Shown here piece by piece: positions 1 through 19,268 of a stretch of 64,000 nucleotides of DNA. Below the pieces are notes generated by a model that saw only the letters and a list, made by a program, of their open reading frames with translations, did not search any database and was not told the origin of the DNA. The position numbers were made by a program, and so were the translations under genes. Source of the stretch: Escherichia phage phi456; the sequence record OR339795; one strand, given 5' to 3'. The stretch's first letter is position 1; each line of letters begins with the position of its first letter.

Positions 1-24
1 GTAAAAGCATCCTTGCTCCTTAAT

Positions 25-636
25 TCAAAGAGAAAAGCTAAAGCCCAGAAGGGAAGCCAAAGAACTTGAGGATTGGTTAAACGTGCTGTGCAATGCGAAG
101 GTCATTGGGAATGACTTAAATTCAGTAACCTGATCTCGCGCATAGGTGACATCGCCGGTAGTGACCGGGAATACCGTCATCTCATTTTCCAGTTTGGTTA
201 AGCCGGAAGACAGCAACCGATAAATACGCACATTGAGCAAATATTTAGACGGTATATTCCCGGTACCGTCCGGATTGATCACCCGACTTTTTGCCGTCTT
301 AAACCAGTCCAAAACGAGGCCATCAACGGTATCCCTGACCATCATTGTTATCTGCCCAGGCGAACGCTCCGTTGGTTGAAGGATATTCCCTCCGCCGATT
401 TTAATCGTTTCATATTCGATGCTGTAATCGTGGTAGGTAATGTCTTTGGCAAAGAAGTCTGCCCCCTCCAGTCCATCAACTTCGACAGAGAACTGCCATC
501 CTTGCGCGAACAGCATTTTGTTCATGATGATTGACGTCAGCTTACCAACTTCCCGCTCACCAACGCCGGAGCCAAATAATGTCGTCGTTAATGCCGAAGA
601 TACATAAGACTTTACTGAAGCAACATTAAGCCCCAT
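25..636 (-). CDS. hypothetical phage protein, possibly a tail component
   Basis: 203-aa ORF ending the minus-strand gene run left of immI; no motif recognised. Confidence 0.3.
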   Translation of the reverse strand: MGLNVASVKSYVSSALTTTLFGSGVGEREVGKLTSIIMNKMLFAQGWQFSVEVDGLEGADFFAKDITYHDYSIEYETIKIGGGNILQPTERSPGQITMMVRDTVDGLVLDWFKTAKSRVINPDGTGNIPSKYLLNVRIYRLLSSGLTKLENEMTVFPVTTGDVTYARDQVTEFKSFPMTFALHSTFNQSSSSLASLLGFSFSL

Positions 637-646
637 ATCAGCCCCC

Positions 647-1252
<606 letters not shown>

Positions 1253-1293
1253 AGTTGTCATTTGTGACAGTATGCTCGCAATCGTAGTGATTA

Positions 1294-1833
1294 CTACCAC
1301 CAACTGCTAGCTTTCTTCTCTCTAGCTTTTCCTTCGCTTTGCAGTAAATCTTTACTTCCTGTAGAAATATTTCTATTTGCATCAGCCTCAGACTGAATTA
1401 CATCTGTCTTAGCTGCTCTCTCCTTCAACTCCTGCTCTATAAAATCGTTTTCTCGCTGGACACGAGCCGCTTTTGCTTGCAGTTCGAGCTTCATGCTTTC
1501 GAGTTGCAGCTTGCGAAGCTCATCCTCATAAGCTTGATCTCGCTTCTTGTCATTTGCTAGCTCGGCTTCTCGTTTCGCTCTACGTTCATTTTCTGCAGCA
1601 ACACGCTGTTTTTCGCGTGCAGCAGCGGCAGATGCTGCTTTTTCTCTTCTAATACGTTCAGCTTGTGCTTGTTGGCGAATAAGTTCTTTTCTGGCATCCT
1701 CAGCTTGCTGCTCTTTAGCTCGCCCTTCATTTTCCGCTTGAGCAATAGCAGCAATTTGACTTTGCAACGAGTTAGCCAAGGCAGTGCCTACACTAAACGT
1801 AGAAAAGATTAGAAATAAAATAATTTTATTCAT
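1294..1833 (-). CDS. secreted coiled-coil protein with TolA-like K/E/A/R-rich helical region
   Basis: N-terminal signal-peptide-like segment MNKIILFLIFSTFSVGTALA followed by a long charged helical repeat region. Confidence 0.5.
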   Translation of the reverse strand: MNKIILFLIFSTFSVGTALANSLQSQIAAIAQAENEGRAKEQQAEDARKELIRQQAQAERIRREKAASAAAAREKQRVAAENERRAKREAELANDKKRDQAYEDELRKLQLESMKLELQAKAARVQRENDFIEQELKERAAKTDVIQSEADANRNISTGSKDLLQSEGKAREKKASSWW

Positions 1834-1836
1834 AAA

Positions 1837-2358
1837 TTATTTCTTTTCTGGACAAGTAGCATTTGGCTGAATTCGAGTTTCATTATCTTTAGTTGAAATA
1901 AGCACAGCAAGCCCCGTTGTAAACTGGCATGCTTTACCAACTTGAGTTGAAGTGAACACCTTAGTTCCTTCTTTATAAGTCAGTGAAACACCTTCAACAA
2001 TTGTTTTATCACTAACCAAAGAACCAGCCGCTGCACCAAGAGCCGCACCACCAGTACCGCCAGCTACAGCACCCAGTGTCGATGTGCCTTTAACATTATA
2101 ACCGGCAACGCCCCCAGCAACAGCTCCCAGTACCGCACCAAATGTCTGTGCCGCTTCTTTATTAGCTTTATTATCAACTTTCACTTTAGCTGGAAGCACA
2201 GAGATAATATTGACTGTCTTTGTTTCCTGCTTCGAATTCAATTGAGCGGTATCATAAACATCGGCAGCATAATCAGCACCGCTAGATTGACACCCAGAAA
2301 GAAGAATTGCAGATACAACAAGAGCGCATAAAGTATACTTTTTAGACATAAGAATCAT
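1837..2358 (-). CDS. lipoprotein with glycine-zipper domain
   Basis: Lipobox LLSGC after a hydrophobic N-terminus; GxxxG/AxxxG-rich segment GAVLGAVAGGVAG...GAVAGGTGGAALGAAAG. Confidence 0.55.
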   Translation of the reverse strand: MILMSKKYTLCALVVSAILLSGCQSSGADYAADVYDTAQLNSKQETKTVNIISVLPAKVKVDNKANKEAAQTFGAVLGAVAGGVAGYNVKGTSTLGAVAGGTGGAALGAAAGSLVSDKTIVEGVSLTYKEGTKVFTSTQVGKACQFTTGLAVLISTKDNETRIQPNATCPEKK

Positions 2359-2639
2359 CCCAGAAAAACAAAAACCGGCGAGAAGTTACCACGAGAACGG
2401 AAAGTAAACAAGAATACTCCCATTGACTTATATCAATTAATCAACTTTTTATAAGCTATCCCTAACTTATTGTGTATAGCTGAAAAGTCAGAGACAAGTT
2501 CACCATCTGCATTATTTCTTAAGTTAATAGTTTATTGCTAACTTAATTTATGCATCGACTATTGATATCCATCTTAAAGTTACAATATCCCTCTGCATTA
2601 TTTTTCATCACAAATAATATATCTATTGCACGACACTAA

Positions 2640-2656
2640 TCTGCTCTAATAAATTT
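2640..2656 (+). promoter_or_regulatory. C1 repressor operator-like site (Op51-like) upstream of immI
   Basis: tgctctaataaattt matches 15/17 of the P1 C1 operator consensus ATTGCTCTAATAAATTT. Confidence 0.6.
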
Positions 2657-2825
2657 GTATTTTTAAGTCGCGAATGCTATCTTTTCGCATCATATTGACC
2701 TTTTAATCGTTCAGGCTTATAGTTTCGCCGTCGTAGCAAATTCTGCGACCGGGTTTAGCAGCCTGAATGATTGTGCGGACAGCCGCAGATATCCGATATT
2801 GCGGTATTTTTGTGTCCGTAAAACC

Positions 2826-2905
2826 GCGTTACGCCCAAATTATGGTGGGGCGTGATGGGGAGGCTTCGGCCTGCTGGTTTCACAATCGCCAGTCTGCTAA
2901 CCCCG
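2826..2905 (+). ncRNA. c4: candidate c4-like antisense RNA region of immI
   Basis: Position between Op51-like site and icd; stem cgccc/gggcg (2832-2852) and aggc-UUCG-gcct tetraloop hairpin (2861-2872); boundaries not determined. Confidence 0.25.
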
Positions 2906-2970
2906 TCACGTCCTGCCACCTGTTTAGCAGCGGGTAGCAGGTTGTTAAACCTGATTGTGAGGCCGTAACT

Positions 2971-3192
2971 ATGGTTAATGCCAATCCTTGCGCACGCCAA
3001 GAATTCATCTGGCGTTTCTATTCCTGCAAAAAACACCACTATCACTTCGTCATCGCAGCAACAGAAGACGAAGCACGCTCTCAATTGCCTGATGGCCCCT
3101 GCATTTTTACTGCCCGTTTTTCAACTAACTCGCGCAATTCACTTAGTTACTGGAACCTCCCCTTCTCTGCCGACGTTCAGGGGGGTTTATGA
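2971..3192 (+). CDS. icd: Icd-like small protein of immI
   Basis: 73-aa ORF whose stop overlaps the ant start (ATGA), as in P1 icd-ant. Confidence 0.55.
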   Translation: MVNANPCARQEFIWRFYSCKKHHYHFVIAATEDEARSQLPDGPCIFTARFSTNSRNSLSYWNLPFSADVQGGL

Positions 3193-4223
3193 AAAAACCT
3201 CTCGTCACCCGTAATGAAATAGCCGAAGCGATCGCCCTGCATACAACCTGTATGCCGACACGGGAGATCCCCGGCGCAATTGCTAACTATTTCATGATAA
3301 CCAGACGTTTTTATACCCGAACAGATAAGGCTGTGATCAGCAGGCTACTGATAGCCGAGATCAGGGATTATTTGATTGAACAAGGACGTCTACGTTACGC
3401 AACAGTGGCAGCAGAAATGAGAAAGGAGGCACATAGAATGACCGGTAATAATTTAAATGTTGAAAAACCAGCACCTGTTGCTTCAGCTACGCCAGCACCA
3501 GCCCTGAATGTCATCTCCAACACCGGAGACACAATCGACAGCCAAACATTGTTGAAGATGGTCAATGAGGCACGGAAATTATGTAGCGAAAAACCAGTTC
3601 GCAACAATGATTTCATTGCCAGAGTTAAGGATGAGCTTGAAGGAGAAACCTACGAAATTTTCGTAGGTCAAAAAAACGGCGCAGAAATAGATATTATAAC
3701 CATGACCTACAAACAAGCCCTGCGAGTTGCCGCGCGCGAGTCAAAAGCGGTCCGCCGTTCGCTGATCGACAAACTGGAAGAATTACAGCAGGCAAACTCC
3801 CCTACCCCATCGATCCCCCAGACATTACCAGAAGCCCTACGCCTGGCTGCCGAGTTAGCAGAACAGAAAATGCAGTTGGAACAACAGCTGGTGGCCGCAG
3901 CCCCTAAAGTCGATTTTGCCGACCGGGTATCAGTGGCCAATGGAATCCTGATCGGGAACTTTGCAAAGGTCGTTGGACTTAAGCAAAACGCCCTTTTCTC
4001 ATGGTTGCGCCAGAACGGCATTCTCATGGCTTTTGGAGCGCGCAAAAACGTACCGCGCCAACAGTACATCAACGCCGGGTATTTCACGGTGAAAGAGGTG
4101 GTGCTGGATGATGAAAATGGCTACCAGATACGGCTGACGCCCCAATTAACGGGTAAAGGCCAGCAGTGGTTAACTCGCAAGCTACTTGATGCTGGTTTGT
4201 TAAAACCAGTAGCAATAGGTTAA
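3189..4223 (+). CDS. ant1: antirepressor Ant1 (ANT/KilA-C C-terminal domain)
   Basis: 344 aa; C-terminal PKVDFADRVS...GNFAKVVGLKQN...GYFTVKE motif of phage antirepressor C-domain; immI synteny. Confidence 0.7.
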   Translation: MKKPLVTRNEIAEAIALHTTCMPTREIPGAIANYFMITRRFYTRTDKAVISRLLIAEIRDYLIEQGRLRYATVAAEMRKEAHRMTGNNLNVEKPAPVASATPAPALNVISNTGDTIDSQTLLKMVNEARKLCSEKPVRNNDFIARVKDELEGETYEIFVGQKNGAEIDIITMTYKQALRVAARESKAVRRSLIDKLEELQQANSPTPSIPQTLPEALRLAAELAEQKMQLEQQLVAAAPKVDFADRVSVANGILIGNFAKVVGLKQNALFSWLRQNGILMAFGARKNVPRQQYINAGYFTVKEVVLDDENGYQIRLTPQLTGKGQQWLTRKLLDAGLLKPVAIG

Positions 4224-4234
4224 CAAAAGAAAAA

Positions 4235-4261
4235 ACCTGCCAGCTAACTGGCAGGTTTCTG
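4235..4261 (+). terminator. rho-independent terminator after ant
   Basis: Hairpin acctgccag-ctaa-ctggcaggt followed by tttct. Confidence 0.55.
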
Positions 4262-4300
4262 AGCAGATCGTCCAACCCGATCTGGATCGAGTCAGAAAAA

Positions 4301-4317
4301 TTTGCTCTAATAAATTT
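4301..4317 (+). promoter_or_regulatory. C1 operator-like site (Op53-like) in front of kilA-repL
   Basis: tttgctctaataaattt, 16/17 match to the C1 operator consensus, about 70 bp upstream of kilA. Confidence 0.65.
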
Positions 4318-4386
4318 CGTTTTCTAAGTGCAAAGAATCACCATTTCGAGCTGGTGATTGAAGGTTGATGCAAATTTGGAGAAAAA

Positions 4387-5187
4387 ATGCAACAAACATT
4401 CAATGCGGATATGAATATATCAAACCTTCATCAAAATGTCGATCCTTCAACCACTCTGCCCGTTATTTGTGGTGTTGAAATTACGACCGACCGCGCTGGC
4501 CGTTACAACCTTAATGCTCTACACAGAGCGAGCGGACTCGGTGCCCATAAAGCGCCAGCTCAATGGCTAAGAACGCTGTCAGCTAAACAGCTCATCGAAG
4601 AGCTTGAAAAAGAAACTATGCAGAATTGCATAGTTTCGTTCGAAGGCCGTGGCGGCGGCACTTTTGCCCATGAATTGCTCGCTGTGGAGTACGCAGGCTG
4701 GATTTCTCCCGCGTTTCGGCTGAAGGTAAACCAGACATTTATCGACTATCGAGCTGGAAGATTACAACCTGCTATTCCGCAGAGTCTCCCTGAAGCTCTC
4801 CGTTTGGCTGCCGACCTGGCAGAGCAAAAGCAACGGCTGGAGCAAAAAATGCTTATGGATGCACCTAAAGTCGAATTCGCCGAACGCGTTGCTACCGCCA
4901 GCGGGGTTCTAATCGGCAACTATGCCAAAGTGCTCGGCCTGGGCCAAAACTATCTCTTCACTTGGTTGCGTGATAACGGAATTCTGATCGCAACCGGTGA
5001 ACGCAGGAACGTCCCCAAACAAGAATACATATCCCGTGGGTACTTCACCCTCAAAGAAACCGTGATCGATACAAGCAATGGAAGCAGGATTTCTTTCACG
5101 ACTCGTATAACCGGTAAAGGTCAGCAGTGGCTTATGAAGCGATTGCTTGATGCTGGTGTGCTGGTACCTGTCGCGGCAACGCGCTAA
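4387..5187 (+). CDS. kilA: KilA (KilA-N domain plus ANT C-domain)
   Basis: 266 aa; C-terminal ANT-like domain; sits directly upstream of a RepL-sized ORF, as in the P1 lytic replicon. Confidence 0.65.
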   Translation: MQQTFNADMNISNLHQNVDPSTTLPVICGVEITTDRAGRYNLNALHRASGLGAHKAPAQWLRTLSAKQLIEELEKETMQNCIVSFEGRGGGTFAHELLAVEYAGWISPAFRLKVNQTFIDYRAGRLQPAIPQSLPEALRLAADLAEQKQRLEQKMLMDAPKVEFAERVATASGVLIGNYAKVLGLGQNYLFTWLRDNGILIATGERRNVPKQEYISRGYFTLKETVIDTSNGSRISFTTRITGKGQQWLMKRLLDAGVLVPVAATR

Positions 5188-5216
5188 CAAACGTAGTAAG
5201 AACCACCAGCATTGTA

Positions 5217-6062
5217 ATGCTGGCTAAAGTCACTTTCCTGAGCTGTATAACGATGAGCGATTTTACTTTTTCTGGCTATGAATTGGCCTGCTTTGTAACA
5301 CACTCCGGTCTATCCCGTAGCGCCGGGCATATCCTGTCGCAATGTGCAAATCTCGCGGCAACAACCAGTGAATACTTCATTCACAAGCCTCACCGCCTGA
5401 TCGCGGCAGAAACTGGTTATAGCCAATCAACCGTCGTTCGTGCATTCCGTGAAGCTGTAAACAAAGGAATTCTGTCTGTAGAGATTGTTATCGGCGATCA
5501 CCGTGAACGTCGCGCTAACCTGTACCGGTTTACACCATCATTTTTGGCCTTCGCACAACAAGCCAAAAATGCGCTGATTGAAAGCAAATTAAAGATCTCT
5601 TCAGCGGCAACCAAGGTTAAAGCTGTTCTCGCTAAGACATTGGCTTTATTTAATTTTTTATCCACACCCCCATGTCAAAATGATACCCCCTCCCCCTGTC
5701 AGGATGACGTGGCAATAAAGAATAAGAAGTCACAAGTTAAAAAAACAGAAAGATCAGTTTCCGGCGGTGCCGGAACGACCAGACTCAAAAAATTGACTTC
5801 ATGGATCGCTGAGGCAAAAGCAAAGGCTGACAATCTGCGGTTATCCAAAAAACGCGCTCAAAAACATGAGTTCAAGCAGAAAGTAGAGGCGACAGCGCGG
5901 AAATATGCTTACCTGAAGAACAAGCGTTCTCCTGATATTGGCGGGGTATCAAACTTCGATAATCTGCCGCATTGCATGACGGTAAACGAAGCTCTTAATG
6001 CGGTTTTAGCCAAAAATAAAGATAACGAACAATGGGGTATACCGGCAGGATTCAGAGGGTGA
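5217..6062 (+). CDS. repL: lytic replication protein RepL
   Basis: 281-aa ORF immediately after kilA; size and position as P1 repL. Confidence 0.65.
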   Translation: MLAKVTFLSCITMSDFTFSGYELACFVTHSGLSRSAGHILSQCANLAATTSEYFIHKPHRLIAAETGYSQSTVVRAFREAVNKGILSVEIVIGDHRERRANLYRFTPSFLAFAQQAKNALIESKLKISSAATKVKAVLAKTLALFNFLSTPPCQNDTPSPCQDDVAIKNKKSQVKKTERSVSGGAGTTRLKKLTSWIAEAKAKADNLRLSKKRAQKHEFKQKVEATARKYAYLKNKRSPDIGGVSNFDNLPHCMTVNEALNAVLAKNKDNEQWGIPAGFRG

Positions 6063-6112
6063 TAGATTGCTCTAATCTGGAGTCACCTGGCGTTTTCAGT
6101 TTGAGGTCGGAG

Positions 6113-6358
6113 ATGCAATCTGATTTTTTACAGTTAGCGATCGCTTTTGCAGGATATGTTTGTATTGGCTTCTGTGTATACATGATCAGCCGAAAAATGC
6201 TTGTCGATATCGACCGCAAAGAACAAGCAGAGGAGATCTTAGTATGGATTTTCTTTGGCGCGGTCTGGCCATTAGGGATCATGTTTGCTGCAACATTTCT
6301 TCTGATGTGGATATTCACCCTTCCAGGTGATTTCTATAGAAAAAAAGCCAGACATTGA
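6113..6358 (+). CDS. small membrane protein
   Basis: ATG at 6113 with GAGG RBS; two hydrophobic helices; the longer ORF 6032-6358 probably over-extends the N-terminus. Confidence 0.4.
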   Translation: MQSDFLQLAIAFAGYVCIGFCVYMISRKMLVDIDRKEQAEEILVWIFFGAVWPLGIMFAATFLLMWIFTLPGDFYRKKARH

Positions 6359-6439
6359 TACAATCGTTGCGGGTGCTTGAGGCTATCTGCTTCAGGCATT
6401 ACCCGAAAAGCAGATAGAAGAAAGCCCCAGATAACATTA

Positions 6440-6510
6440 CGCGTCCTGCAAGACGCTTAACATTAATCTGAGGCAATATCTATGCTTAGCATACGTAGAT
6501 TAGCCTCTTA
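6440..6510 (-). ncRNA. sok: candidate Sok-like antisense RNA
   Basis: Placed by analogy to hok/sok loci, antisense to the mok start region; boundaries unverified. Confidence 0.3.
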
Positions 6511-6688
6511 CCGACCAAAAGGTCAAGGAGAAGCAGGCTATGAAGCAGCAAAAAGCGATGTTAATCGCTCTGATCGTCATCTGTTTAACCGTCATTGTGA
6601 CGGCACTGGTAACGAGGAAAGACCTCTGCGAGGTACGAATCCGAACCGGCCAGACGGAGGTCACTGTCTTCACAGCCTACGAATCTGA
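6482..6688 (+). CDS. mok: Mok-like reading frame overlapping hok
   Basis: 68-aa ORF overlapping the hok frame in a different register. Confidence 0.5.
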   Translation: MLSIRRLASYRPKGQGEAGYEAAKSDVNRSDRHLFNRHCDGTGNEERPLRGTNPNRPDGGHCLHSLRI

Positions 6689-6695
6689 AAGGTAA
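6540..6695 (+). CDS. hok: Hok/Gef-family membrane toxin
   Basis: 51 aa MKQQKAMLIALIVICLTVIVTALVTRKDLCEVRIRTGQTEVTVFTAYESER; resembles Hok (hydrophobic helix, RK.LCE.R motif, AYES C-terminus); below the ORF-track length cut-off. Confidence 0.75.
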   Translation: MKQQKAMLIALIVICLTVIVTALVTRKDLCEVRIRTGQTEVTVFTAYESER

Positions 6696-6770
6696 GAGAC
6701 CTGGCGGGGAGAGATCCTCGCCACTCTTCGTGTGTCAGGTATCCTCAATGCACCCTTTCCTCTCCAAATA

Positions 6771-6797
6771 AAAAAGCTCCCGAAGGAGCTTTAAAAT
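6771..6797. terminator. bidirectional-type terminator hairpin
   Basis: agctcccgaaggagct hairpin flanked by A-run and T-rich sequence; ends the minus-strand structural operon and the hok transcript. Confidence 0.6.
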
Positions 6798-10364: not shown

Positions 10365-10423
10365 AACTTTCCCTGTTATGCGCCCCGCACGGGGCGCTAT
10401 GTTAAACGGAGAACTTCCCCTGA

Positions 10424-12151
10424 TTACTCAGAGTCACCGGCATCAATCGTGTCGCCGCTTATAAAGTTAAGCCCGCCTTTTTTGGCCATTGTCAGCGTTA
10501 CACGAGTGAAGTAATCAGCGCCGTTGCGTGGGTGCATATCGTTGATAGCCGAACCCCACAGCGTGGTACGGTTGACCAGCGCCGGAGTGGTCGGATGCTG
10601 GAACGGGATGGCCGGGACAGCATCACCAGTCACGAAGCCTGCTTTACCCGGATTTTCATCACGGACGTAGCACAGCACATCCATCGAGCTGAACTGAATG
10701 TTCTCTGTCGTTAAGTTCTTACAAATACCAGCAGGTACTTCGTACACTTTCACGTTACCGAACAGGGTACCGATGTAGTGAACATACGGAGTCTGGATAT
10801 AGTCTTCGGCTGGCTGGAAGAAATCCTTCGGCAACTGTTTGAAGAAAGATGCTGCATCAGCACCAGCAAACATCCCCATCGCACCAGAAGATTTAACGCG
10901 CTCAATAATGTCGCGATATACAGTCTGGAATTTGCCACGAATGATGGTTGCCCATACATCAAAGGACTGGTTAACCGGCAGAGCGATGTCAAAGGTGACG
11001 GTCGCAAGAGTACGCCAGATCATGATGTGAAGACGCAGCATATCCTGTTCATGAGACAGGTATTCCTTCAGGGTGCGGAACTGTAGGGAACCCAGGTCCA
11101 GACCAAATTCACGCTGTGCTTCATACGCCGCCTGTACCGTGTGCTCAGCCGCGATAACGAACTGACTTGGGAACAGGGTGTATTTCTTCATTTCGTGGTT
11201 GATCAGCGGGATCAGCTCAGGAGCGGCTTCAATATTGATTTCCGTCTCAATTGCGATCTCAGTGCCTTTATCCGGCGCTTTGGAGAACGACAGGGCAATC
11301 TGACCAATGTTGTAGTTCAGAGAGCAGGTAACAGTGATTTGCTCACCAGCAGCATTAGTAAACGAGTGAAGTAGGCTGCCGGAACCGTTATCAACAACAG
11401 ACTTAATACGGTTAACGTAGATGTTAGTGCGACCTTTTCGGATTGGTACATTCTGGCCTTCGAAGTCTTCCATCTTGAAGGTTGCGGTTTTGCTGGTGCC
11501 ATCGGAGCTTGCCACCAGCACATAGCGGCGACGTAACTGGCTGTACACACCGACGGATTGCATGTCCAGAACATCACCAGCAGCATAAGAACCAAAAGAT
11601 GAACCTGCCACGTTAAAGACTTCATAGATGTCGGACTGGTCACGCGTAACCGGAATGAAGGTACACGCATCAGCGGTAGCTGCCCCCAACTGAACAGGCA
11701 GGATCATCGCGAGGAATAAAGGCAGACGCATAACACCGTCAGAAACGCTCATCATCTCTGCTGCGACGGATTCCAGCATCGCTTTATTAGTGGCATCCAT
11801 GCTATTGCGGGTGGACTCAATCAGGCAGTTTTCCAGCGTCTGGTGGCAGGAGGCCAGAATTTCCGGACGCGGCATAGATTTATGTGCTGCGGCGTAGTCA
11901 GCCAGTGCACTTGCCCACGCTGTAGCGATTTGAGCGGTGGCATTATCAGAGATACCCGCAAAAACCGGGTCTTTACGTGCAGCTTCAAGGATAGATGCGG
12001 CACGCGCGGCATCATCTTTAATGAATTGGTTATCAGTACCGAACTGCGCAGTGCTTGCCCAGCCAAGCACAGCTTTAGAGCGTTTTGCGATATCTGCAAT
12101 ACGATTCTGGTATTCGCGTAAGTTACTCAATTTACTCTTCCTTAAACACAA
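10424..12151 (-). CDS. major head protein precursor candidate (P1 gp23-like)
   Basis: 575 aa (about 63 kDa), adjacent to parS as P1 gene 23; long N-terminal helical region consistent with a processed propeptide. Confidence 0.5.
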   Translation of the reverse strand: MCLRKSKLSNLREYQNRIADIAKRSKAVLGWASTAQFGTDNQFIKDDAARAASILEAARKDPVFAGISDNATAQIATAWASALADYAAAHKSMPRPEILASCHQTLENCLIESTRNSMDATNKAMLESVAAEMMSVSDGVMRLPLFLAMILPVQLGAATADACTFIPVTRDQSDIYEVFNVAGSSFGSYAAGDVLDMQSVGVYSQLRRRYVLVASSDGTSKTATFKMEDFEGQNVPIRKGRTNIYVNRIKSVVDNGSGSLLHSFTNAAGEQITVTCSLNYNIGQIALSFSKAPDKGTEIAIETEINIEAAPELIPLINHEMKKYTLFPSQFVIAAEHTVQAAYEAQREFGLDLGSLQFRTLKEYLSHEQDMLRLHIMIWRTLATVTFDIALPVNQSFDVWATIIRGKFQTVYRDIIERVKSSGAMGMFAGADAASFFKQLPKDFFQPAEDYIQTPYVHYIGTLFGNVKVYEVPAGICKNLTTENIQFSSMDVLCYVRDENPGKAGFVTGDAVPAIPFQHPTTPALVNRTTLWGSAINDMHPRNGADYFTRVTLTMAKKGGLNFISGDTIDAGDSE

Positions 12152-12264
12152 GGCACTTGTGTGAATCCCTTTTCGGAAGAGATTTTATTGAAAGTCACTT
12201 GTTGACTTTCTCGTGACAAGCAATTTTTTTATTTTTTTCGGGAGTAGGGGAGGAAGGTAAAATC

Positions 12265-12355
12265 CAAGGTGAAATCGTGGCGATTTCACCTTGAAATTTT
12301 AGATGGATTTACTTTAAAAACAGTAGTTTAATAGTGAAATTTGAATGGCGAAAGT
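12265..12355. promoter_or_regulatory. parS: parS partition site
   Basis: ParB box motifs gtgaaat/tggcga/atttcac (12269-12290) and tagtgaaat...tggcga (12332-12353) flanking an AT-rich IHF-like core, just downstream of parB. Confidence 0.75.
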
Positions 12356-13357
12356 TTAAGGCTTCGGCTTTTTATCGAGGCTCTTTCTAAGGATATGCCC
12401 AATCATCCTGTCGAGTTCTTCCTGTAGCTCTTTTGAAAGTCGATTAAACTCATAAGAAAATGCACGGCCTTTCACGCGCTTCCTTGCAAAGCGATCCTTG
12501 TCCTCAAATTTCCATAATTCAGTAACTACGGACTTATCTTTAGAACCTTTATCCGTGAGTAGTGAAGCTTCCTTTGTTATCAAGCGCAGGATTTTATTTT
12601 TAACTTCATCTTCGGCCATTTCTTCAATGGATAAGATGTCGTTTATTTCCGGGGATATGTTTTGAATAAGCTGATCAAACTCTAAATTCTTGTTCCCCAT
12701 TTCGTCGCCAACAGCACAAAGCGTTTTGTAGTCCGAAAAGGTTAATTCCGACTGCACAGGGAAAAGGGCGACTAATTCTTCCGGAGCACTCGCTGCCTGG
12801 AGAGCACGCGTGACCTTCGCCTGAGATAGCCCTTCTTTGGCTGCAATATCCTTCTGACTCATCCCATCATTTTTCATTCGCATCAAACGCAGACCTATTT
12901 CTCGAATGCTGTGCTGCAATGCTGTCTGAACGTCTTTCGCTAAATTTTGCGCTTCCTGAACGCTGATCTCCTGGTCCGTGACTAAAACCCGCAACCCTAC
13001 GTTCTCTAAGATGGCAGAAGCTCGACGCCGGGAACCATCCAAAATTTCAATTTTCCCTGTAGCCCGTCTAACACCTATTGCAGGGTAAAATTGCTGATGC
13101 TTAATAGTGCTTCGGATACTTTTTAATGATTTTGGCGTAAGAGATGCCTGGTCACGCCCGTTGTTATGCTGATCAACAAAGGTATCGCTTTCTACCTGGT
13201 TCGGAGGTATTACCTCTTCAATAAATGTGGCCTGGCGACCAGTTGATAACTTGAATACCTGCTCGACTCGATCGCCAGAGGCTGAAGAACTATCAAATCC
13301 GCTTAATATTGAAGGATTAAGGGTTCGCCCAATTGTTGGTCTGTTTTTCTTTGACAT
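12356..13357 (-). CDS. parB: partition protein ParB
   Basis: 333 aa beginning MSKKNRPTIGRTLNPSILSGFDSS, recognised as P1 ParB. Confidence 0.9.
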   Translation of the reverse strand: MSKKNRPTIGRTLNPSILSGFDSSSASGDRVEQVFKLSTGRQATFIEEVIPPNQVESDTFVDQHNNGRDQASLTPKSLKSIRSTIKHQQFYPAIGVRRATGKIEILDGSRRRASAILENVGLRVLVTDQEISVQEAQNLAKDVQTALQHSIREIGLRLMRMKNDGMSQKDIAAKEGLSQAKVTRALQAASAPEELVALFPVQSELTFSDYKTLCAVGDEMGNKNLEFDQLIQNISPEINDILSIEEMAEDEVKNKILRLITKEASLLTDKGSKDKSVVTELWKFEDKDRFARKRVKGRAFSYEFNRLSKELQEELDRMIGHILRKSLDKKPKP

Positions 13358-13373
13358 GGGGGTTTCTTACTCC

Positions 13374-14570
13374 TCAGTTAGATCTGATAAATTCAATACG
13401 GTCAAAAACTGCTTTAGCAAAATCTTCCGCAGCAATTCGCGCGTTCTTCAATGCATCAGCACTACCAACATACGTTGCCGGGTTAGCTGAAATAACAGTG
13501 TCAAAAGACTCGCCGCAGCGTTCAAAACCGTCAAGGCGAGGGAGGACAACATCAAGCATATCCCCACCGAACACTTCTTTAGCCAGGCTATGGCAATACT
13601 TATGGTCTGCCTTGTTACTCAACTTGGACATAAAACCAATGTTAGTTGCAAGCTGACACTCGCAGCCTTCATCCGAAATGAGTTTCACCAACTCAGGAAG
13701 GCGGGCAACGTATTTAAGCGATGAGTGGAAATCAACCGTTGCAGGCGGCAGAGGTGTAAACAGTATATTGGCCGAGGCCAAAGCATTTTTCAGGAAGGCG
13801 TCAAGGTGAGGACCACTATCAACGAGGATAAAGTCATAATCGCTCTTCAGCTTATCAATCACATTTTCTTTCAGGACTGCATGGATGTTCTGACCCGGTA
13901 GATGCTCATTGCACAGCTCTCTCCAATCGGATGCAATAAAGGCATCGTCAATCGACGCAGGCATAACGTCAACCCCAGGTACAACAGAAGGAACAATAAA
14001 CTCCTCTAACAGCTCTTCACGGCTTACATTCTGCAACATAGCCTGTGCAGATGTTGCGTTTACGATACCAATAGAGTGTTTATGGCTTAAAAACATCGTT
14101 GCTGAAGATTGCGGATCAAGGTCAATAACCAGAATCCTTAAATCTTCCATCAGAAGATGAGGATGAGCACGCATTGCATGCGCCAGAGAAACCGTCGATA
14201 CAGTTTTTGACACACCGCCTTTAAGATTGGAGATGAAAATCACATACGCTTCGCTGTAGCGATCCCGGTATTTTGGCACTCCGCGATGTTCATATATGTC
14301 AATGATGTTCTGAATTGACATCGCATATTTCATTGAAGAGCCAGCAGGGCGTTTATCGAAAACATAACCCTTTTCTTCCATTTCACTTACGGCATAGTCA
14401 ACGTTCGCACGAGTCAGTAGAGGCAATTTTGCCAGTGCCGCTTTCGCATAGACCTGGTAAAACTCGTTCGCGTGTAGCTCATCCTTTTGCAACTGTACTT
14501 GTTCAGTCAGAACATTGAGCATTCTATTTGCTCTTTGAGCAACCTTGTGAAGCTGGCTGGAATCACTCAT
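13374..14570 (-). CDS. parA: partition ATPase ParA
   Basis: 398 aa with Walker A KGGVSKT and N-terminal regulatory domain, recognised as P1 ParA. Confidence 0.9.
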   Translation of the reverse strand: MSDSSQLHKVAQRANRMLNVLTEQVQLQKDELHANEFYQVYAKAALAKLPLLTRANVDYAVSEMEEKGYVFDKRPAGSSMKYAMSIQNIIDIYEHRGVPKYRDRYSEAYVIFISNLKGGVSKTVSTVSLAHAMRAHPHLLMEDLRILVIDLDPQSSATMFLSHKHSIGIVNATSAQAMLQNVSREELLEEFIVPSVVPGVDVMPASIDDAFIASDWRELCNEHLPGQNIHAVLKENVIDKLKSDYDFILVDSGPHLDAFLKNALASANILFTPLPPATVDFHSSLKYVARLPELVKLISDEGCECQLATNIGFMSKLSNKADHKYCHSLAKEVFGGDMLDVVLPRLDGFERCGESFDTVISANPATYVGSADALKNARIAAEDFAKAVFDRIEFIRSN

Positions 14571-14708
14571 CGAAAGCCATCCTTTATGCTGTATTTTTGA
14601 ATTTAATTAAAAATGCTGCATAAAATAATAATGTATGCGTAGATGCTTGTACATAGCATTCTCTGCATGTTTGGTTCATTTTGCACGATTGAGAGTTACA
14701 AGGAGGGC
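14571..14708 (-). promoter_or_regulatory. par operon promoter/operator region
   Basis: AT-rich interval upstream of parA between the ORF269 terminator and the parA start. Confidence 0.45.
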
Positions 14709-14710
14709 AC

Positions 14711-14731
14711 AAAAAAGCCCCGTTCAGGGGC
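14711..14731 (-). terminator. rho-independent terminator of the T5orf172-like gene
   Basis: Minus-strand hairpin gcccctgaacggggc followed by T6. Confidence 0.65.
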
Positions 14732-14738
14732 ATCAGTG

Positions 14739-15548
14739 TTATTTGCTAAGAGCAGCGAATAATCGTTCGAAATCGATAGTATCTATAGCACGCGTAAGCG
14801 CCGGAAGTTCAGCCTCAAAGTACCCGTGTCGATCGTAAAAGAAGGGACCGAAGAGCGAGGCATGTTGGATTCTACTTCGCCCCAGCCCGGACACACAGTT
14901 AAGCCCATTACCGGCTAAAAGGCTAAAAAACTTCTCTGGATTATCGTGGTAAAGCTGGGAATCAATGGTGGCGGTTAACTCTTCCATAGGGAAGCACACC
15001 CGCCCTGTATCCCAGGGATATTTAGTCCGAAGCATAAACATTGCTTTCAGCAATTCACATTGAGCGCGGATCGCGTCCGGTTCATAGCCAGATATGGAGA
15101 CATAAGCCACGTCCCTCATTCCTGCGTCATCTTTGAAAGTCACGATAGAAGTAACATCCAGCTCTTTTTCGAAAGAGCAAGCAGCATCTACTGGACGCTG
15201 AAGTAAATCATTCGACTTAATGCGCTCGAGAATCCCTCCCCACATATCATTTAGATATTCGATATGAGCCAAAACCTTATCAAGACACTCTCGTGTAAAC
15301 CATTCAGTATGCCCGCCACCGGCGCTTTTCTCCCACGGCGCATTCCAGGGGAAAAAGGTTGCGTGTAAAGCCCGCTCAAGATTAACCATTGCCAAACGCG
15401 TACCACGATAGACCCGTGAAAGCGCAAAATCGGGACTCACTTGTAGCCCTTTAAACCGTGCCAATGGACCACATGAAATGCCGATTTTAAAAGTATCTCC
15501 GTTCTCTGGCACCAGAACGTAGAGGTAGTGTTGTTTCTCTTCTTGCAT
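14739..15548 (-). CDS. T5orf172/MUG113 (GIY-YIG superfamily) domain protein with unknown C-terminal domain
   Basis: 269 aa; N-terminal YLYVL...FKIGIS...LERALHATF...GGGHTEWF matches the T5orf172 signature; own terminator; lies between parA and the incA-like iterons. Confidence 0.6.
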   Translation of the reverse strand: MQEEKQHYLYVLVPENGDTFKIGISCGPLARFKGLQVSPDFALSRVYRGTRLAMVNLERALHATFFPWNAPWEKSAGGGHTEWFTRECLDKVLAHIEYLNDMWGGILERIKSNDLLQRPVDAACSFEKELDVTSIVTFKDDAGMRDVAYVSISGYEPDAIRAQCELLKAMFMLRTKYPWDTGRVCFPMEELTATIDSQLYHDNPEKFFSLLAGNGLNCVSGLGRSRIQHASLFGPFFYDRHGYFEAELPALTRAIDTIDFERLFAALSK

Positions 15549-15582
15549 ATCAATACCACTGCTTGATGAGAACCGCGCAAAT

Positions 15583-15839
15583 GTTGACTATGCGCGAAGG
15601 TTAATGTGAATAGTTGACTATGCGCGATGTGACTACAGTCAAAAGTTGACTGTAGTCGATTTAACTCCACCAAAGATCGACTATGTAAGATATTGTCGGG
15701 AGAAACGTTGACTATACGCGATGAAATGCCCCTAAAAGCCATCTCAATAGCGACTTGCAGAATATTGACGCCAGCAAAAATCCACCAGCGTCAACGAATG
15801 TCGCCTATAGTCAACTTCTCGCTATCGCATATAGTCAAT
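15583..15839. repeat. incA-like iteron array downstream of repA
   Basis: At least six copies of GTTGACTAT(G/A)CGCGA in both orientations (15583, 15613, 15676, 15707, 15801, 15825) plus a palindromic pair at 15629-15659. Confidence 0.7.
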
Positions 15840-15840
15840 A

Positions 15841-16761
15841 TTATGGATTGCGCTTATGGATCTGGAAGCCGATTTTCCTGCCGTTTTTTATCTCTGAAAA
15901 TTTAAGATATTCAATAGCTTCCAAATCTTTCATGGCTTTTCTGATAACGCTATTTTGCACGCTAACGGATGATTTGAGATTAAGCCTCGCTCTAAGGCGC
16001 TCAATGCTGACAGGTGCCGGGTTGGCGGGTAGAGCCTCAAAGAATGTATACAGTACCTTGGCCGTCTCTTTGCGCCCTAGTTTATCCAGCATCTTCAGCT
16101 TCAGGATTCGCTTATAGTCAACATAGTAAAGTTCAGATAGCTGTTTCTGCGGCTGGATCTCGATAACATCAAGCTCGGTATTCAGGCTGCTATATGCCAA
16201 CAAGTTGACGTTAATGTTATTGAGATGACCTTTTGCCGCCGGGAAGCGGAATTTGACAACTGTCTGCTGAATGCGTGTCAGAGAGTCATCAATACTTTTA
16301 CGGAACGCCTTTGAAAGGCGCTTACGTGGATAGCCGCATCGATCGGCAAACTCGGAGAATGGCAGGGTGATTATGCCGTCATCATCAGGTGCGTAGTCAA
16401 ACAACGCGGAGGTTATGCCCACCCACACCTTAAAATCAGTATCCATATCCAGGCGTGGACCATGAATTTCAATTCCCTCATAGCCTTCCTGCTCAACAAT
16501 TTTGAGGCTTGATAGTTCTTCAGTTGCGTTCGTTGTGTTTGTTGTAACTGACGATCCGCGACGTAGCGCCACATTGGTAGATTTTAAGGTTGGCACAAAC
16601 ACACCTAAGCGCAACAAAGCGATGGGTTGTATAGTGCTGTTGTTATTGGGCTTCAGGCTGTGGATTTCTCCTGTATTTCCTGCAACTTCTTCAACGCTAA
16701 GGAAGCCTTTACTTTCTTCCGGCATCACGGTTTCTCCATGTGTGGCGCGGCCTGACGTCAA
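15841..16761 (-). CDS. repA: plasmid replication initiator RepA (P1 RepA-like, divergent)
   Basis: 306 aa with blocks shared with P1 RepA (PIALLRLGVFVP, GPRLDMDTDFK) but diverged elsewhere; flanked by iteron arrays. Confidence 0.8.
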   Translation of the reverse strand: MTSGRATHGETVMPEESKGFLSVEEVAGNTGEIHSLKPNNNSTIQPIALLRLGVFVPTLKSTNVALRRGSSVTTNTTNATEELSSLKIVEQEGYEGIEIHGPRLDMDTDFKVWVGITSALFDYAPDDDGIITLPFSEFADRCGYPRKRLSKAFRKSIDDSLTRIQQTVVKFRFPAAKGHLNNINVNLLAYSSLNTELDVIEIQPQKQLSELYYVDYKRILKLKMLDKLGRKETAKVLYTFFEALPANPAPVSIERLRARLNLKSSVSVQNSVIRKAMKDLEAIEYLKFSEIKNGRKIGFQIHKRNP

Positions 16762-16806
16762 TTTGGATGGCTGTTATCAACAGCTGTGAATATTCAGACT
16801 CTAAAA

Positions 16807-17010
16807 TCGCTTACAGTCAATGTTTCTGTCGCGTATAGTCAACAATAAATCGCGTGCAGTCAACAATAAATCGTGCACAGTCAACATAAAATCGCGTATA
16901 GTCAATGTTGATCCCATTTCAGGCCAGTAATGACGCGGCTTACAGCGATCCGGGATCTTCTTTGGATCTTCCTAGGTTCTCTTTAGGATCTGTTTATTGG
17001 ATCTATGCTG
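16807..17010. promoter_or_regulatory. oriR-like plasmid origin: five iterons, GATC cluster, DnaA box
   Basis: Iterons tcgcNNNNagtcaa(c/t) at 16807, 16829, 16850, 16871, 16892 with 21-22 bp spacing; five GATC in 16938-16994; TTATCCACA on minus strand at 17001-17009. Confidence 0.7.
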
Positions 17011-17061
17011 TGGATAAGTTGAATAAACCGGCCAACAAAGCCGGTTGGAAGGAAGTCATAT

Positions 17062-17185
17062 TATTCTACGCTTTCGATAAGAAGACCATGTTCATAACAT
17101 TTAAGCTCATCGCCTTCATACAGGAATTGGTATCCAACACCACCATCTTCATGGACATTAGGGAATAACTCATAACTCACTGAAG
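17062..17185 (-). pseudogene. 3' fragment of a backbone gene truncated by IS629
   Basis: Minus-strand open frame ending ...YEGDELKCYEHGLLIESVE-stop abutting the IS629 end, followed by hairpin aaccggcc...ggccggtt. Confidence 0.3.
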
Positions 17186-17239
17186 TGAACCGCCCCGGGA
17201 ATCCTGGAGACTAAACTTCCTGAGAAAGAGGTAAACAGG

Positions 17240-17566
17240 ATGACTAAAAATACTCGTTTTTCCCCCGAAGTCCGTCAACGGGCAGTTCGTATGGTTCTGG
17301 AAAGTCAGGGCGAATATGACTCACAATGGGCGGCAATTTGTTCCATTGCTCCAAAGATTGGCTGTACGCCAGAGACTCTGCGCGTCTGGGTTCGCCAGCA
17401 TGAGCGGGATACCGGGGGCGGTGATGGTGGGCTCACCACCGCTGAACGTCAGCGTCTGAAAGAGCTGGAGCGTGAAAATCGTGAACTGCGCCGCAGTAAC
17501 GATATCCTTCGCCAGGCTTCCGCTTATTTTGCGAAGGCGGAGTTCGACCGCCTCTGGAAAAAATGA
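17240..17566 (+). CDS. IS629-like OrfA
   Basis: 108 aa [19 protein letters not shown]... with leucine zipper; IS3-family OrfA. Confidence 0.85.
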
Positions 17567-18362
17567 TGCCACTGCTGGATAAGCTGCGTGAGCAGTACGG
17601 GGTCGGACCGGTATGCAGCGAACTGCATATTGCCCCGTCAACGTATTACCACTGTCAGCAACAGCGACATCATCCGGATAAACGCAGTGCCCGTGCGCAG
17701 CGCGATGACTGGCTGAAGAAAGAGATACTGCGCGTATACGATGAAAATCATCAGGTGTACGGTGTGCGTAAAGTCTGGCGTCAGTTGTTACGGGAAGGTA
17801 TCAGGGTGGCCAGATGCACTGTGGCACGTCTCATGGCGGTTATGGGACTTGCCGGTGTTCTCCGGGGTAAAAAGGTCCGTACGACCATCAGCCGGAAAGC
17901 CGTTGCCGCAGGCGACCGCGTAAACCGTCAGTTCGTGGCAGAACGTCCTGACCAGCTGTGGGTAGCTGATTTTACTTACGTCAGCACATGGCAGGGCTTC
18001 GTCTATGTGGCGTTCATCATTGATGTATTTGCCGGATACATCGTGGGGTGGCGAGTCTCATCGTCTATGGAAACGACATTCGTGCTGGATGCACTGGAGC
18101 AGGCGTTGTGGGCCCGCCGGCCGTCCGGCACAATCCACCACAGTGATAAAGGTTCTCAGTATGTATCGCTGGCCTACACGCAGCGGCTTAAGGAAGCCGG
18201 CTTACTGGCCTCAACAGGAAGTACTGGTGACTCGTATGACAACGCGATGGCGGAGAGCATCAATGGTCTTTACAAAGCGGAGGTAATACACCGTAAGAGT
18301 TGGAAAAACCGGACAGAAGTGGAACTGGCCACACTAACGTGGGTGGACTGGTGGATTTGCCC

Positions 18363-19268
18363 CTATATTTCCAGACACCTGTTATCACTTAACCCATTAC
18401 TGGCCTGCTGCCGCAGATATTCCCGTGGCGAGCGATAACCCAGTGCACTATGCGGATGCCATTCGTTATAATGCTCGAACGCCTCTGCAAGGTTCTTTGC
18501 TGCCGTTAACCCGTCTGGTTTAGGCATGATACTGATGTAGTCACGCTTTATCGTTTTCACGAAGCTCTCTGCTATGCCGTTACTCTCTGGACTCCGCACC
18601 GCCGTGTTCTTCGGTTCAAGCCCCAACATCCGGGCAAACTGCCGTGTTTCATTAGCCCGGTAGCATGAACCATTATCCGTCAGCCACTCTACTGGAGACG
18701 CCGGAAGCTCGTTGCCGAAGCGGCGTTCCACCGCTCCCAGCATTACGTCCTGTACTGTTTCACTGTCGAAGCCGCCCGTAGTGACTGCCCAGTGCAGTGC
18801 CTCACGGTCACAGCAGTCCAGCGCGAACGTGACTCGCAGTTTTTCTCCGTTATCACAGCGGAACTCGAACCCGTCAGAGCACCATCGTTGATTGCTTTCT
18901 TTCACGGCCACTTTGCCAGTATGTGCCCGTTTCGATGGCGGTACAGCGGTTTTTCGCTCAAGCAACAGCGCATTCTGGCGCATGATCCGGTAAACACGTT
19001 TGGCATTGATCGCAGGCATACCATCAAGTTCGGCCTGTCTGCGAAGCAGCGCCCATACCCGACGATAACCATACGTGGGCAGCTCTCCGATAACATGGTG
19101 TATACGGAGAAGCACATCCGTATCATCTGAGTGACGGCTGCGGCGACCATCTTTCCAGTCATCGGTTCGTCTGAGAATTACGTGCAACTGCGCACGCGAC
19201 ACCCGGAGACAACGGCTGACTAAGCTTACTCCCCATCCCCGGGCAATAAGGGCGCGTGCGCTATCCAC
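18363..19268 (-). CDS. insD: IS2 transposase OrfB
   Basis: 301-aa DDE transposase recognised as IS2 InsD. Confidence 0.9.

Follow-up and report, generated by a model that had tools for sequence, protein, structure and literature searches.

A T5orf172-family nuclease gene at the edge of an exchanged replicon cassette in P1-like phage-plasmids

Related nucleases and layout of the locus

T5orf172 genes are homing endonuclease genes (HEGs) enriched in ICP1, T5-like and other phages, where they adjoin essential genes and the boundaries of exchanged blocks; they trade their DNA-binding domains, and frameshifts in them are common (Barth, Dunham & Seed 2023, PMC10448857). In the ICP1 protein Odn (Gp88), a T5orf172 nuclease is joined to a RepA_N domain that is 42% identical to the PLE initiator; Odn cuts the PLE origin in an iteron-dependent manner, and the single substitution E180A leaves it catalytically inactive (Barth et al. 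2021, PMC8263062). Odn-like genes arose repeatedly, E. coli phages included (PMC10448857), and a further HEG-derived protein, CapR, acts as a repressor (PMC8096241, PMC10448857). Our literature search found no paper linking T5orf172 or GIY-YIG to P1-like phage-plasmids. One paper remarks, without comment, on ‘2 orfs inserted between repA and parA’ in pSvP1.

We analysed a window of 64,000 nucleotides from Escherichia phage phi456 (OR339795). It is an SJ46/RCS47-type P1-like phage-plasmid, with positions 14400–16000 being 99–100% identical to Salmonella phage SJ46, Escherichia phages RCS47 and JL22 and hundreds of E. coli and Salmonella plasmids. Positions 14571–15582 make up the entire interval from the start of parA to the first iteron. 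A first-pass annotation, made from the letters of the window, had noted here a 269-aa gene with its own terminator, lying between parA and an iteron array and having an undescribed function. The gene is an open reading frame on the minus strand with six iterons beyond its ATG, a hairpin and T-run follow it, and the literature search yielded no assigned function for it. The features of the region are as follows.

13374–14570, minus strand: parA, the conserved flank (99.7% amino acid identity to P1 ParA)
14625–14653, minus strand: par operon promoter Ppar, a promoter-like site matching the annotated P1 Ppar
14672–16931, no strand assigned: replicon cassette exchanged relative to P1 (terminator, nuclease gene, iterons, repA and oriR iterons)
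14707–14731, minus strand: intrinsic-terminator-like hairpin and T-run 3′ of the nuclease gene
14739–15548, minus strand: nuclease gene, 269 aa, T5orf172 family, stop codon included (ATG-start open reading frame; Pfam PF10544; PHROGs match)
14742–15167, minus strand: nuclease C-terminal domain, amino acids ~128–269, modelled as a winged helix of the replication-initiator WH1 type
15234–15548, minus strand: T5orf172/GIY-YIG-superfamily N-domain, amino acids 1–105 (Pfam match at amino acids 8–85; invariant motif residues)
15583–15839, no strand assigned: six iteron cores downstream of repA, an incA-like array (repeat families D2 and D5 plus inverted pairs)
15841–16725, minus strand: repA, a Rep_3-family initiator (42% identical to P1 RepA)
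16808–16906, no strand assigned: five oriR iterons with 21-bp spacing (repeat families D1 and D3)

The GC-rich, terminator-like hairpin, GCCCCTGAACGGGGC, runs from 14731 to 14717 on the minus strand, starts 8 nt past the nuclease stop codon and is followed by the T-run, which ends at 14707. The downstream iteron cores are 15 nt long, with those at 15583, 15613, 15645 and 15707 in one orientation and those at 15801 and 15825 in the other; the closest is 34 nt from the nuclease ATG. Window RepA matches Pfam Rep3_C (E 4.4e-6) and reaches 22.0 bits against the 22.4-bit cutoff of Rep3_N. In the program-made list of open reading frames repA runs to a TTG at 16761 (306 aa), and annotated homologues start at the ATG at 16725 (294 aa). 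Cassette limits were taken from a BLAST comparison of RCS47 with P1, transferred to the window via the collinearity of positions 10399–17185 with positions 1–6785 of locus L002, and also from alignment.

The locus shares much with the phage T5orf172 HEGs (PMC10448857): a catalytic domain with a separate DNA-binding module, an intergenic position beside essential genes, an exchanged-block boundary, a fast-diverging binding part and frequent frameshifted or truncated alleles. It differs in that the nuclease is N-terminal, reversing the domain order, in having a predicted winged helix in place of a CapR, DUF723 or DUF4397 zinc finger, and in its host, a phage-plasmid replicon cassette for which homing is a proposal of ours. 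The likeness to Odn lies in a T5orf172 nuclease fused to an initiator-type domain, here a predicted one, and the aiming of a nuclease at an iteron origin is the conceptual link; the Odn DNA-binding domain is however N-terminal and of the RepA_N type, whereas the predicted winged helix is C-terminal and has no sequence similarity to any Rep. T4 Seg and I-TevI-type GIY-YIG homing endonucleases show the same order of N-terminal nuclease, linker and C-terminal DNA-binding domain, are free-standing between conserved genes and have marker exclusion or co-conversion as the expected outcome, but their nuclease is canonical GIY-YIG rather than T5orf172, and their DNA-binding fold is different. Rep_3 initiators (pPS10 RepA, F RepE and P1 RepA) offer the best match, via WH1, to the predicted fold of the C-terminal domain, and the gene adjoins a Rep_3 repA and its iterons; unlike them, the protein has a single winged-helix-like domain, lacks WH2 and a Pfam Rep3_N signal, is fused to a nuclease and is not needed for replication.

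Catalytic and C-terminal domains

All four motifs quoted in the first-pass annotation (YLYVL, FKIGIS, LERALHATF and GGGHTEWF) occur in the translation, and the profile search recovered the T5orf172 domain in the window protein (PF10544 at amino acids 8–85, E=4.7e-6, 27.5 bits against a 20-bit gathering score). The motifs had been read as a T5orf172/MUG113 signature; the first half of that label stands, whereas MUG113, along with Tox-URI2, stayed below threshold in the Pfam search. Three homologues score 25.1–28.0 bits against PF10544, so that all four proteins lie above threshold, and residues Y8, Y10, K21, G23, R31, E58, H62, E82, W83 and F84 are invariant among the four, whose identity is 25–44%. 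No missense change at any invariant motif residue was found in 42 alleles. We assign catalytic roles to the motif residues (the two aromatic/Tyr strands, Arg, and Glu of ‘TEWF’) on the assumption that they act as in GIY-YIG enzymes in general, and their conservation argues for an active nuclease. A Foldseek search with the full model also matched Slx1 GIY-YIG to the N-domain, with a weak E-value. In PHROGs, the full-length protein belongs to phrog_2876, of unknown function, and the N-domain falls weakly in an ‘endonuclease’ family.

The C-terminal domain had been described as unrecognised, which holds at the level of sequence for ~160 aa: no match was found in Pfam (E≤10), in a PDB profile search or in NCBIfam, and the Rep3_N profile did not match it. 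Against an alignment of six RepA proteins that included the neighbouring RepA, hhalign gave a probability of 0.2%. When 1.84 billion representatives were searched exhaustively with a profile, 159 hits resulted, none of them a Rep protein. Any resemblance to Rep proteins is therefore structural only. AlphaFold2 models, built from a four-sequence alignment, reached a pLDDT of 71 for the whole protein and of 75.8 (pTM 0.74) for residues 114–269 alone. The best structural matches of the C-terminal domain were to the MSBI1.176 Rep WH1 (6h24, score 5.8, 106 of 129 residues aligned), pPS10 RepA WH1 (1hkq, 5.2), the RepE dimer (2z9o, 5.1) and RctB (5ubf, 5.0). With the full model, Foldseek ranked RctB, Rep WH1 and RepE54 first, all with weak E-values. 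In a Foldseek search of BFVD the top match was a ‘COG5527 protein involved in initiation of plasmid replication’ (E 2e-3, probability 1.00). From these models we take the domain, with moderate confidence, to be a putative winged-helix DNA-binding domain closest to Rep_3 WH1. The protein contains no CxxC motif.

Distribution and replicon exchange

The full query (the repA end, the nuclease gene and the parA start) is present in 388 PLSDB plasmids, all of which carry the gene, and about 150 P1-type PLSDB plasmids match the parA side only. No variant with window-type repA and parA but without the nuclease gene was seen among the best 60 of 547 PLSDB matches. Among the records listed, the product is annotated as ‘GIY-YIG nuclease family protein’ or ‘hypothetical protein’. 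The family comprises only four lineages among 5.8 billion proteins: the window type, with 1241 member sequences, and lineages P0004 (44% identical to the window protein), P0009 (28%, from Salmonella) and P0011 (29%, from a faecal metagenome). The exhaustive profile search added no full-length member, the other 150-odd hits sharing the N-domain only. An hmmsearch found no second T5orf172 gene in the window, leaving the idea of a HEG island unsupported.

All four lineages occupy one junction in P1-like elements, between the downstream iterons of repA and parA, and the replicons that flank them are of three types. RepA of locus L006 is 84% identical to that of the window, RepA of L008 is 83% identical to P1 RepA (IncY type) and RepA of L010 is 43–48% identical to all others. 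In three loci (the window, L006 and L008) 24–34 nt separate the last iteron from the nuclease start codon; L010 was judged by eye to have iteron-like repeats about as far ahead of its start codon.

Several observations concern relatives outside this junction. A different phage-plasmid of ~94 kb (L007; NZ_CP085065.1, 5063–5947) has a RepA 85% identical to that of the window with no T5orf172 gene downstream, its repA lying between tail genes and a pair of genes, one hypothetical and one for a transglycosylase; the window-type replicon thus also travels without the nuclease. The closest T5orf172 outgroup, P0012 (212 aa, phage contigs L019 and L020), is encoded beside two HNH_3 genes, an RNase H-like gene and an endolysin gene, a neighbourhood that looks nuclease-rich and of HEG type. 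Distant T5orf172 proteins of similar length are found in a chromosomal island with Mrr- and WYL-domain genes (P0013), on a short contig (P0014) and in a mobilisable-plasmid context (P0016), and no common rep/par theme was found among these three.

The first-pass annotation saw the gene as inserted into a conserved P1 par–rep core, a picture that comparison with P1 replaces with one of block exchange. P1 matches only the parA side of window positions 14400–16000 (query positions 1–270/273, up to ~14672), and homology picks up again within the origin, in the GATC/DnaA-box region. A window cassette of ~2.26 kb stands in place of ~1.5 kb of P1 (the IncY replicon) and carries the RepA only 42% identical to that of P1; the nuclease gene is its end element, the last before the breakpoint just upstream of Ppar, with the high-identity flank ending ~67 bp past the nuclease stop codon. 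In P1, incA iteron 1 and Ppar are separated by about 190–213 bp with no gene. No nuclease remnant was detected in this 213-bp spacer (tblastn with all four proteins, E≤10), so a simple deletion as the origin of the P1 arrangement is unsupported.

A second P1-like backbone, with parA ~76% identical to that of P1 at the nucleotide level, gave the same picture when L006 (6831–9019) was compared with L008 (6656–8944). Their ParA proteins are 99.7% identical, yet replicon type and nuclease allele differ, and their two breakpoints coincide with those of the P1/SJ46 pair, the high-identity flank ending 63–84 bp past the nuclease stop codon. Across the flank, RCS47 and P1 share 99.4% identity, and L006 and L008 share 98.6% (range 96–98.6%). 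Since the same two breakpoints occur in both backbones, the GATC/DnaA region and the junction upstream of Ppar look like recurrent exchange points. Presence of the gene is polymorphic at one syntenic site (present in four lineages, absent in P1), and in two independent backbone pairs that site is at an exchange breakpoint. The nuclease gene is real and widespread, yet dispensable.

P1-like phage-plasmids that carry resistance genes are widespread in Enterobacteriaceae. At least three replicon types sit on near-identical P1-like backbones, and a nuclease gene that marks one breakpoint of the swapped block offers a testable mechanism for replicon exchange. The idea that nuclease genes mark exchange boundaries, which comes from lytic phages, would then also cover plasmid maintenance modules.

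Decay, expression and candidate functions

The nuclease diverges much more quickly than the proteins encoded beside it. The window and L006 nucleases are 44% identical, compared with 84% for RepA and 89% for ParA, and within the nuclease the N-domain retains 64% identity and the C-part 33%. In 44 unselected SJ46-type loci from IMG/VR, pN/pS was 0.29 for the nuclease gene (30 nonsynonymous and 27 synonymous polymorphic codons), 0.023 for repA (3 and 40) and 0.002 for parA (1 and 50); an earlier estimate came from loci picked for protein divergence and was biased, and the unselected sample gave the same picture. Eight of 43 nuclease alleles (~19%) are disrupted, with repA and parA essentially intact. 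The disruptions are S112* in five loci (L043–L046 and L048), W68*, Q228* (L039) and one insertion. The Q228* allele of L039 also occurs in plasmid pA163_p0 (L004), and the sharing of Q228* and S112* indicates that knocked-out alleles circulate. Together with the invariant motif, these values describe a gene that is dispensable and weakly constrained but not neutral; a pN/pS of 0.29 reflects purifying selection, and some benefit to the carrier is likely on this reading of the polymorphism.

Two rearranged forms were also seen. In L062 (3295–4504, IMG/VR) an element with a 389-aa open reading frame on the opposite strand, probably an insertion sequence (IS), splits the nuclease gene after nt 294. 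P0005, a 197-aa E. coli plasmid protein, joins an unrelated 78-aa N-terminus to nuclease C-part residues ~105–224, a chimera that points to rearrangement inside the gene in one plasmid.

The first-pass annotation had expected a promoter within or beside the iterons, which we could not find: a consensus scan and inspection by eye gave no sigma-70 promoter on the coding strand between the iterons and the ATG. Over the whole stretch from repA to the ATG neither a promoter nor a terminator is predicted, and the Shine-Dalgarno sequence of the nuclease gene is weak. On these grounds, expression by read-through from the autoregulated repA promoter appears more likely, and coupling of nuclease expression to RepA control is plausible.

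Our tentative preference, held at slightly less than even confidence, is for a free-standing, selfish, homing-endonuclease-like gene encoding a two-domain T5orf172 nuclease at the replicon-cassette edge of P1-like phage-plasmids. Such a gene would be transcribed at a low level, probably by the read-through described above across the iteron array. Where two P1-like elements share a cell, the nuclease would cut the rival near the rep–par junction, and repair from the nuclease-carrying copy would transfer the gene and the adjacent replicon by co-conversion, which would explain an exchange breakpoint directly beside the nuclease gene. After fixation in a cassette type there would be no empty site left to invade, and the gene would drift and decay. 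Consistent with this are the above-threshold T5orf172 domain in four homologues with invariant motif residues, R31 and E82 among them; presence or absence at one syntenic site, with P1 having neither gene nor remnant; the position at the exchange boundary in two independent backbones with different replicon types; divergence beyond that of RepA and ParA, with frequent disruption; and confinement of the family to the rep–par niche, its closest outgroup lying beside two HNH_3 genes. The phage HEGs at exchange boundaries, with their domain swapping and frequent frameshifts, provide a precedent (PMC10448857). Against homing, P1 differs by the whole replicon on one side, so that no clean empty/occupied pair is at hand, and the advantage of a new incompatibility type could by itself drive cassette exchange, the gene being carried along. 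Zinc-finger DNA-binding domains are moreover found in most T5orf172 HEGs described, and the purifying selection on the gene also weighs against a purely homing history.

An Odn-like weapon that serves the carrier is unlikely, but it comes next among the explanations. Guided by the winged helix, the nuclease would cut a rival replicon (for instance a P1-like element of another replicon type, another Rep_3 plasmid or a satellite) at its origin or iterons and so destroy a competitor. The predicted fold, closest to Rep_3 WH1, and the repeated origin of Odn-like genes speak for it, as does a pN/pS below 1, which suggests a kept function. Competition is conceivable as well: parA is 98.8% identical at the nucleotide level between P1-type and SJ46-type elements and, if parS is equally conserved, the two types would compete by partition incompatibility. 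The C-terminal domain has, however, no sequence similarity to the neighbouring RepA or to any Rep, unlike Odn with its 42% identity to the RepA of its target, and no target is identifiable. It also diverges to 33% identity between the window and L006 while the iterons are alike, so it is not following its own iterons, which are an unlikely target for the predicted nuclease. A T5orf172 nuclease that bears a winged helix of initiator type would mean that an Odn-like architecture had been reached a second time, independently; should it cut rival origins, it would be a plasmid competition determinant of a new kind.

A broader version strikes us as quite improbable: every P1-like replicon cassette would come with a linked nuclease of its own, directed by an initiator-like winged helix against the iterons or origin of the rival cassette type. 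If true, replicon type and anti-replicon weapon would be inherited as one unit, and plasmids competing for the same partition system would be sorted by DNA cleavage, a nuclease-based incompatibility.

The first-pass annotation had named, as the outcome that would count against its own reading, a conserved backbone component with a replication or partition role. One half of this was borne out, the gene being a constant component of the cassette, but the role was not: P1 does without the gene, a related repA elsewhere does without it, and knock-outs make up ~19% of alleles although the adjacent repA and parA stay intact. An accessory or regulatory variant, in which the WH1-like domain would tune copy number, handcuffing or par expression by binding to iterons or by pairing with RepA, is correspondingly given a low probability by us. 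WH1 is the dimerisation domain of Rep_3 initiators, a point in favour of this variant, as are the 24–34 nt between last iteron and start codon (window, L006 and L008; similar, by eye, in L010) and the constant co-inheritance of gene and replicon. CapR is a precedent for a HEG-derived repressor (PMC8096241, PMC10448857). Opposed to it stand replication and partitioning of P1 without the gene, the common knock-outs, a divergence far above that of RepA and iterons, and conserved catalytic residues that argue for an active nuclease.

We consider it similarly doubtful that the gene is a functionless passenger, a decaying relic of an old insertion hitch-hiking with the replicon. The proportion of disrupted alleles, nonsynonymous polymorphic codons at least as frequent as synonymous ones, the weak Shine-Dalgarno sequence and the lack of a predicted promoter would fit a relic, but pN/pS is well below 1, and an open reading frame and motif residues kept across lineages at 25–44% identity go beyond what a neutral relic would retain.

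A single-gene anti-phage defence or superinfection-exclusion nuclease, the function favoured in the first-pass annotation, has little probability and gained no positive evidence. A nuclease domain, rapid evolution and frequent loss are typical of conflict genes, and according to published surveys phage-plasmids often encode defence system genes (PMC13221032). On the other side, the PADLOC search matched no family at E≤1, the gene keeps to a single junction of the backbone instead of occupying a variable defence island, its family does not occur outside P1-like elements, there is neither a partner nor a sensor domain, and the T5orf172 literature indicates homing endonucleases and origin-directed nucleases.

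Beyond the cassette, collinearity of the window with RCS47 stops at 17185, within an upfA homologue, where an IS3-family element begins (17186–19636 region). Its orfA occupies 17240–17566 and its orfB 17563–18438, the latter disrupted by a second IS on the minus strand (open reading frames 18363–19268 and 19226–19636). We take the two elements at 17186–19636 to resemble IS629/IS1203 and IS2.
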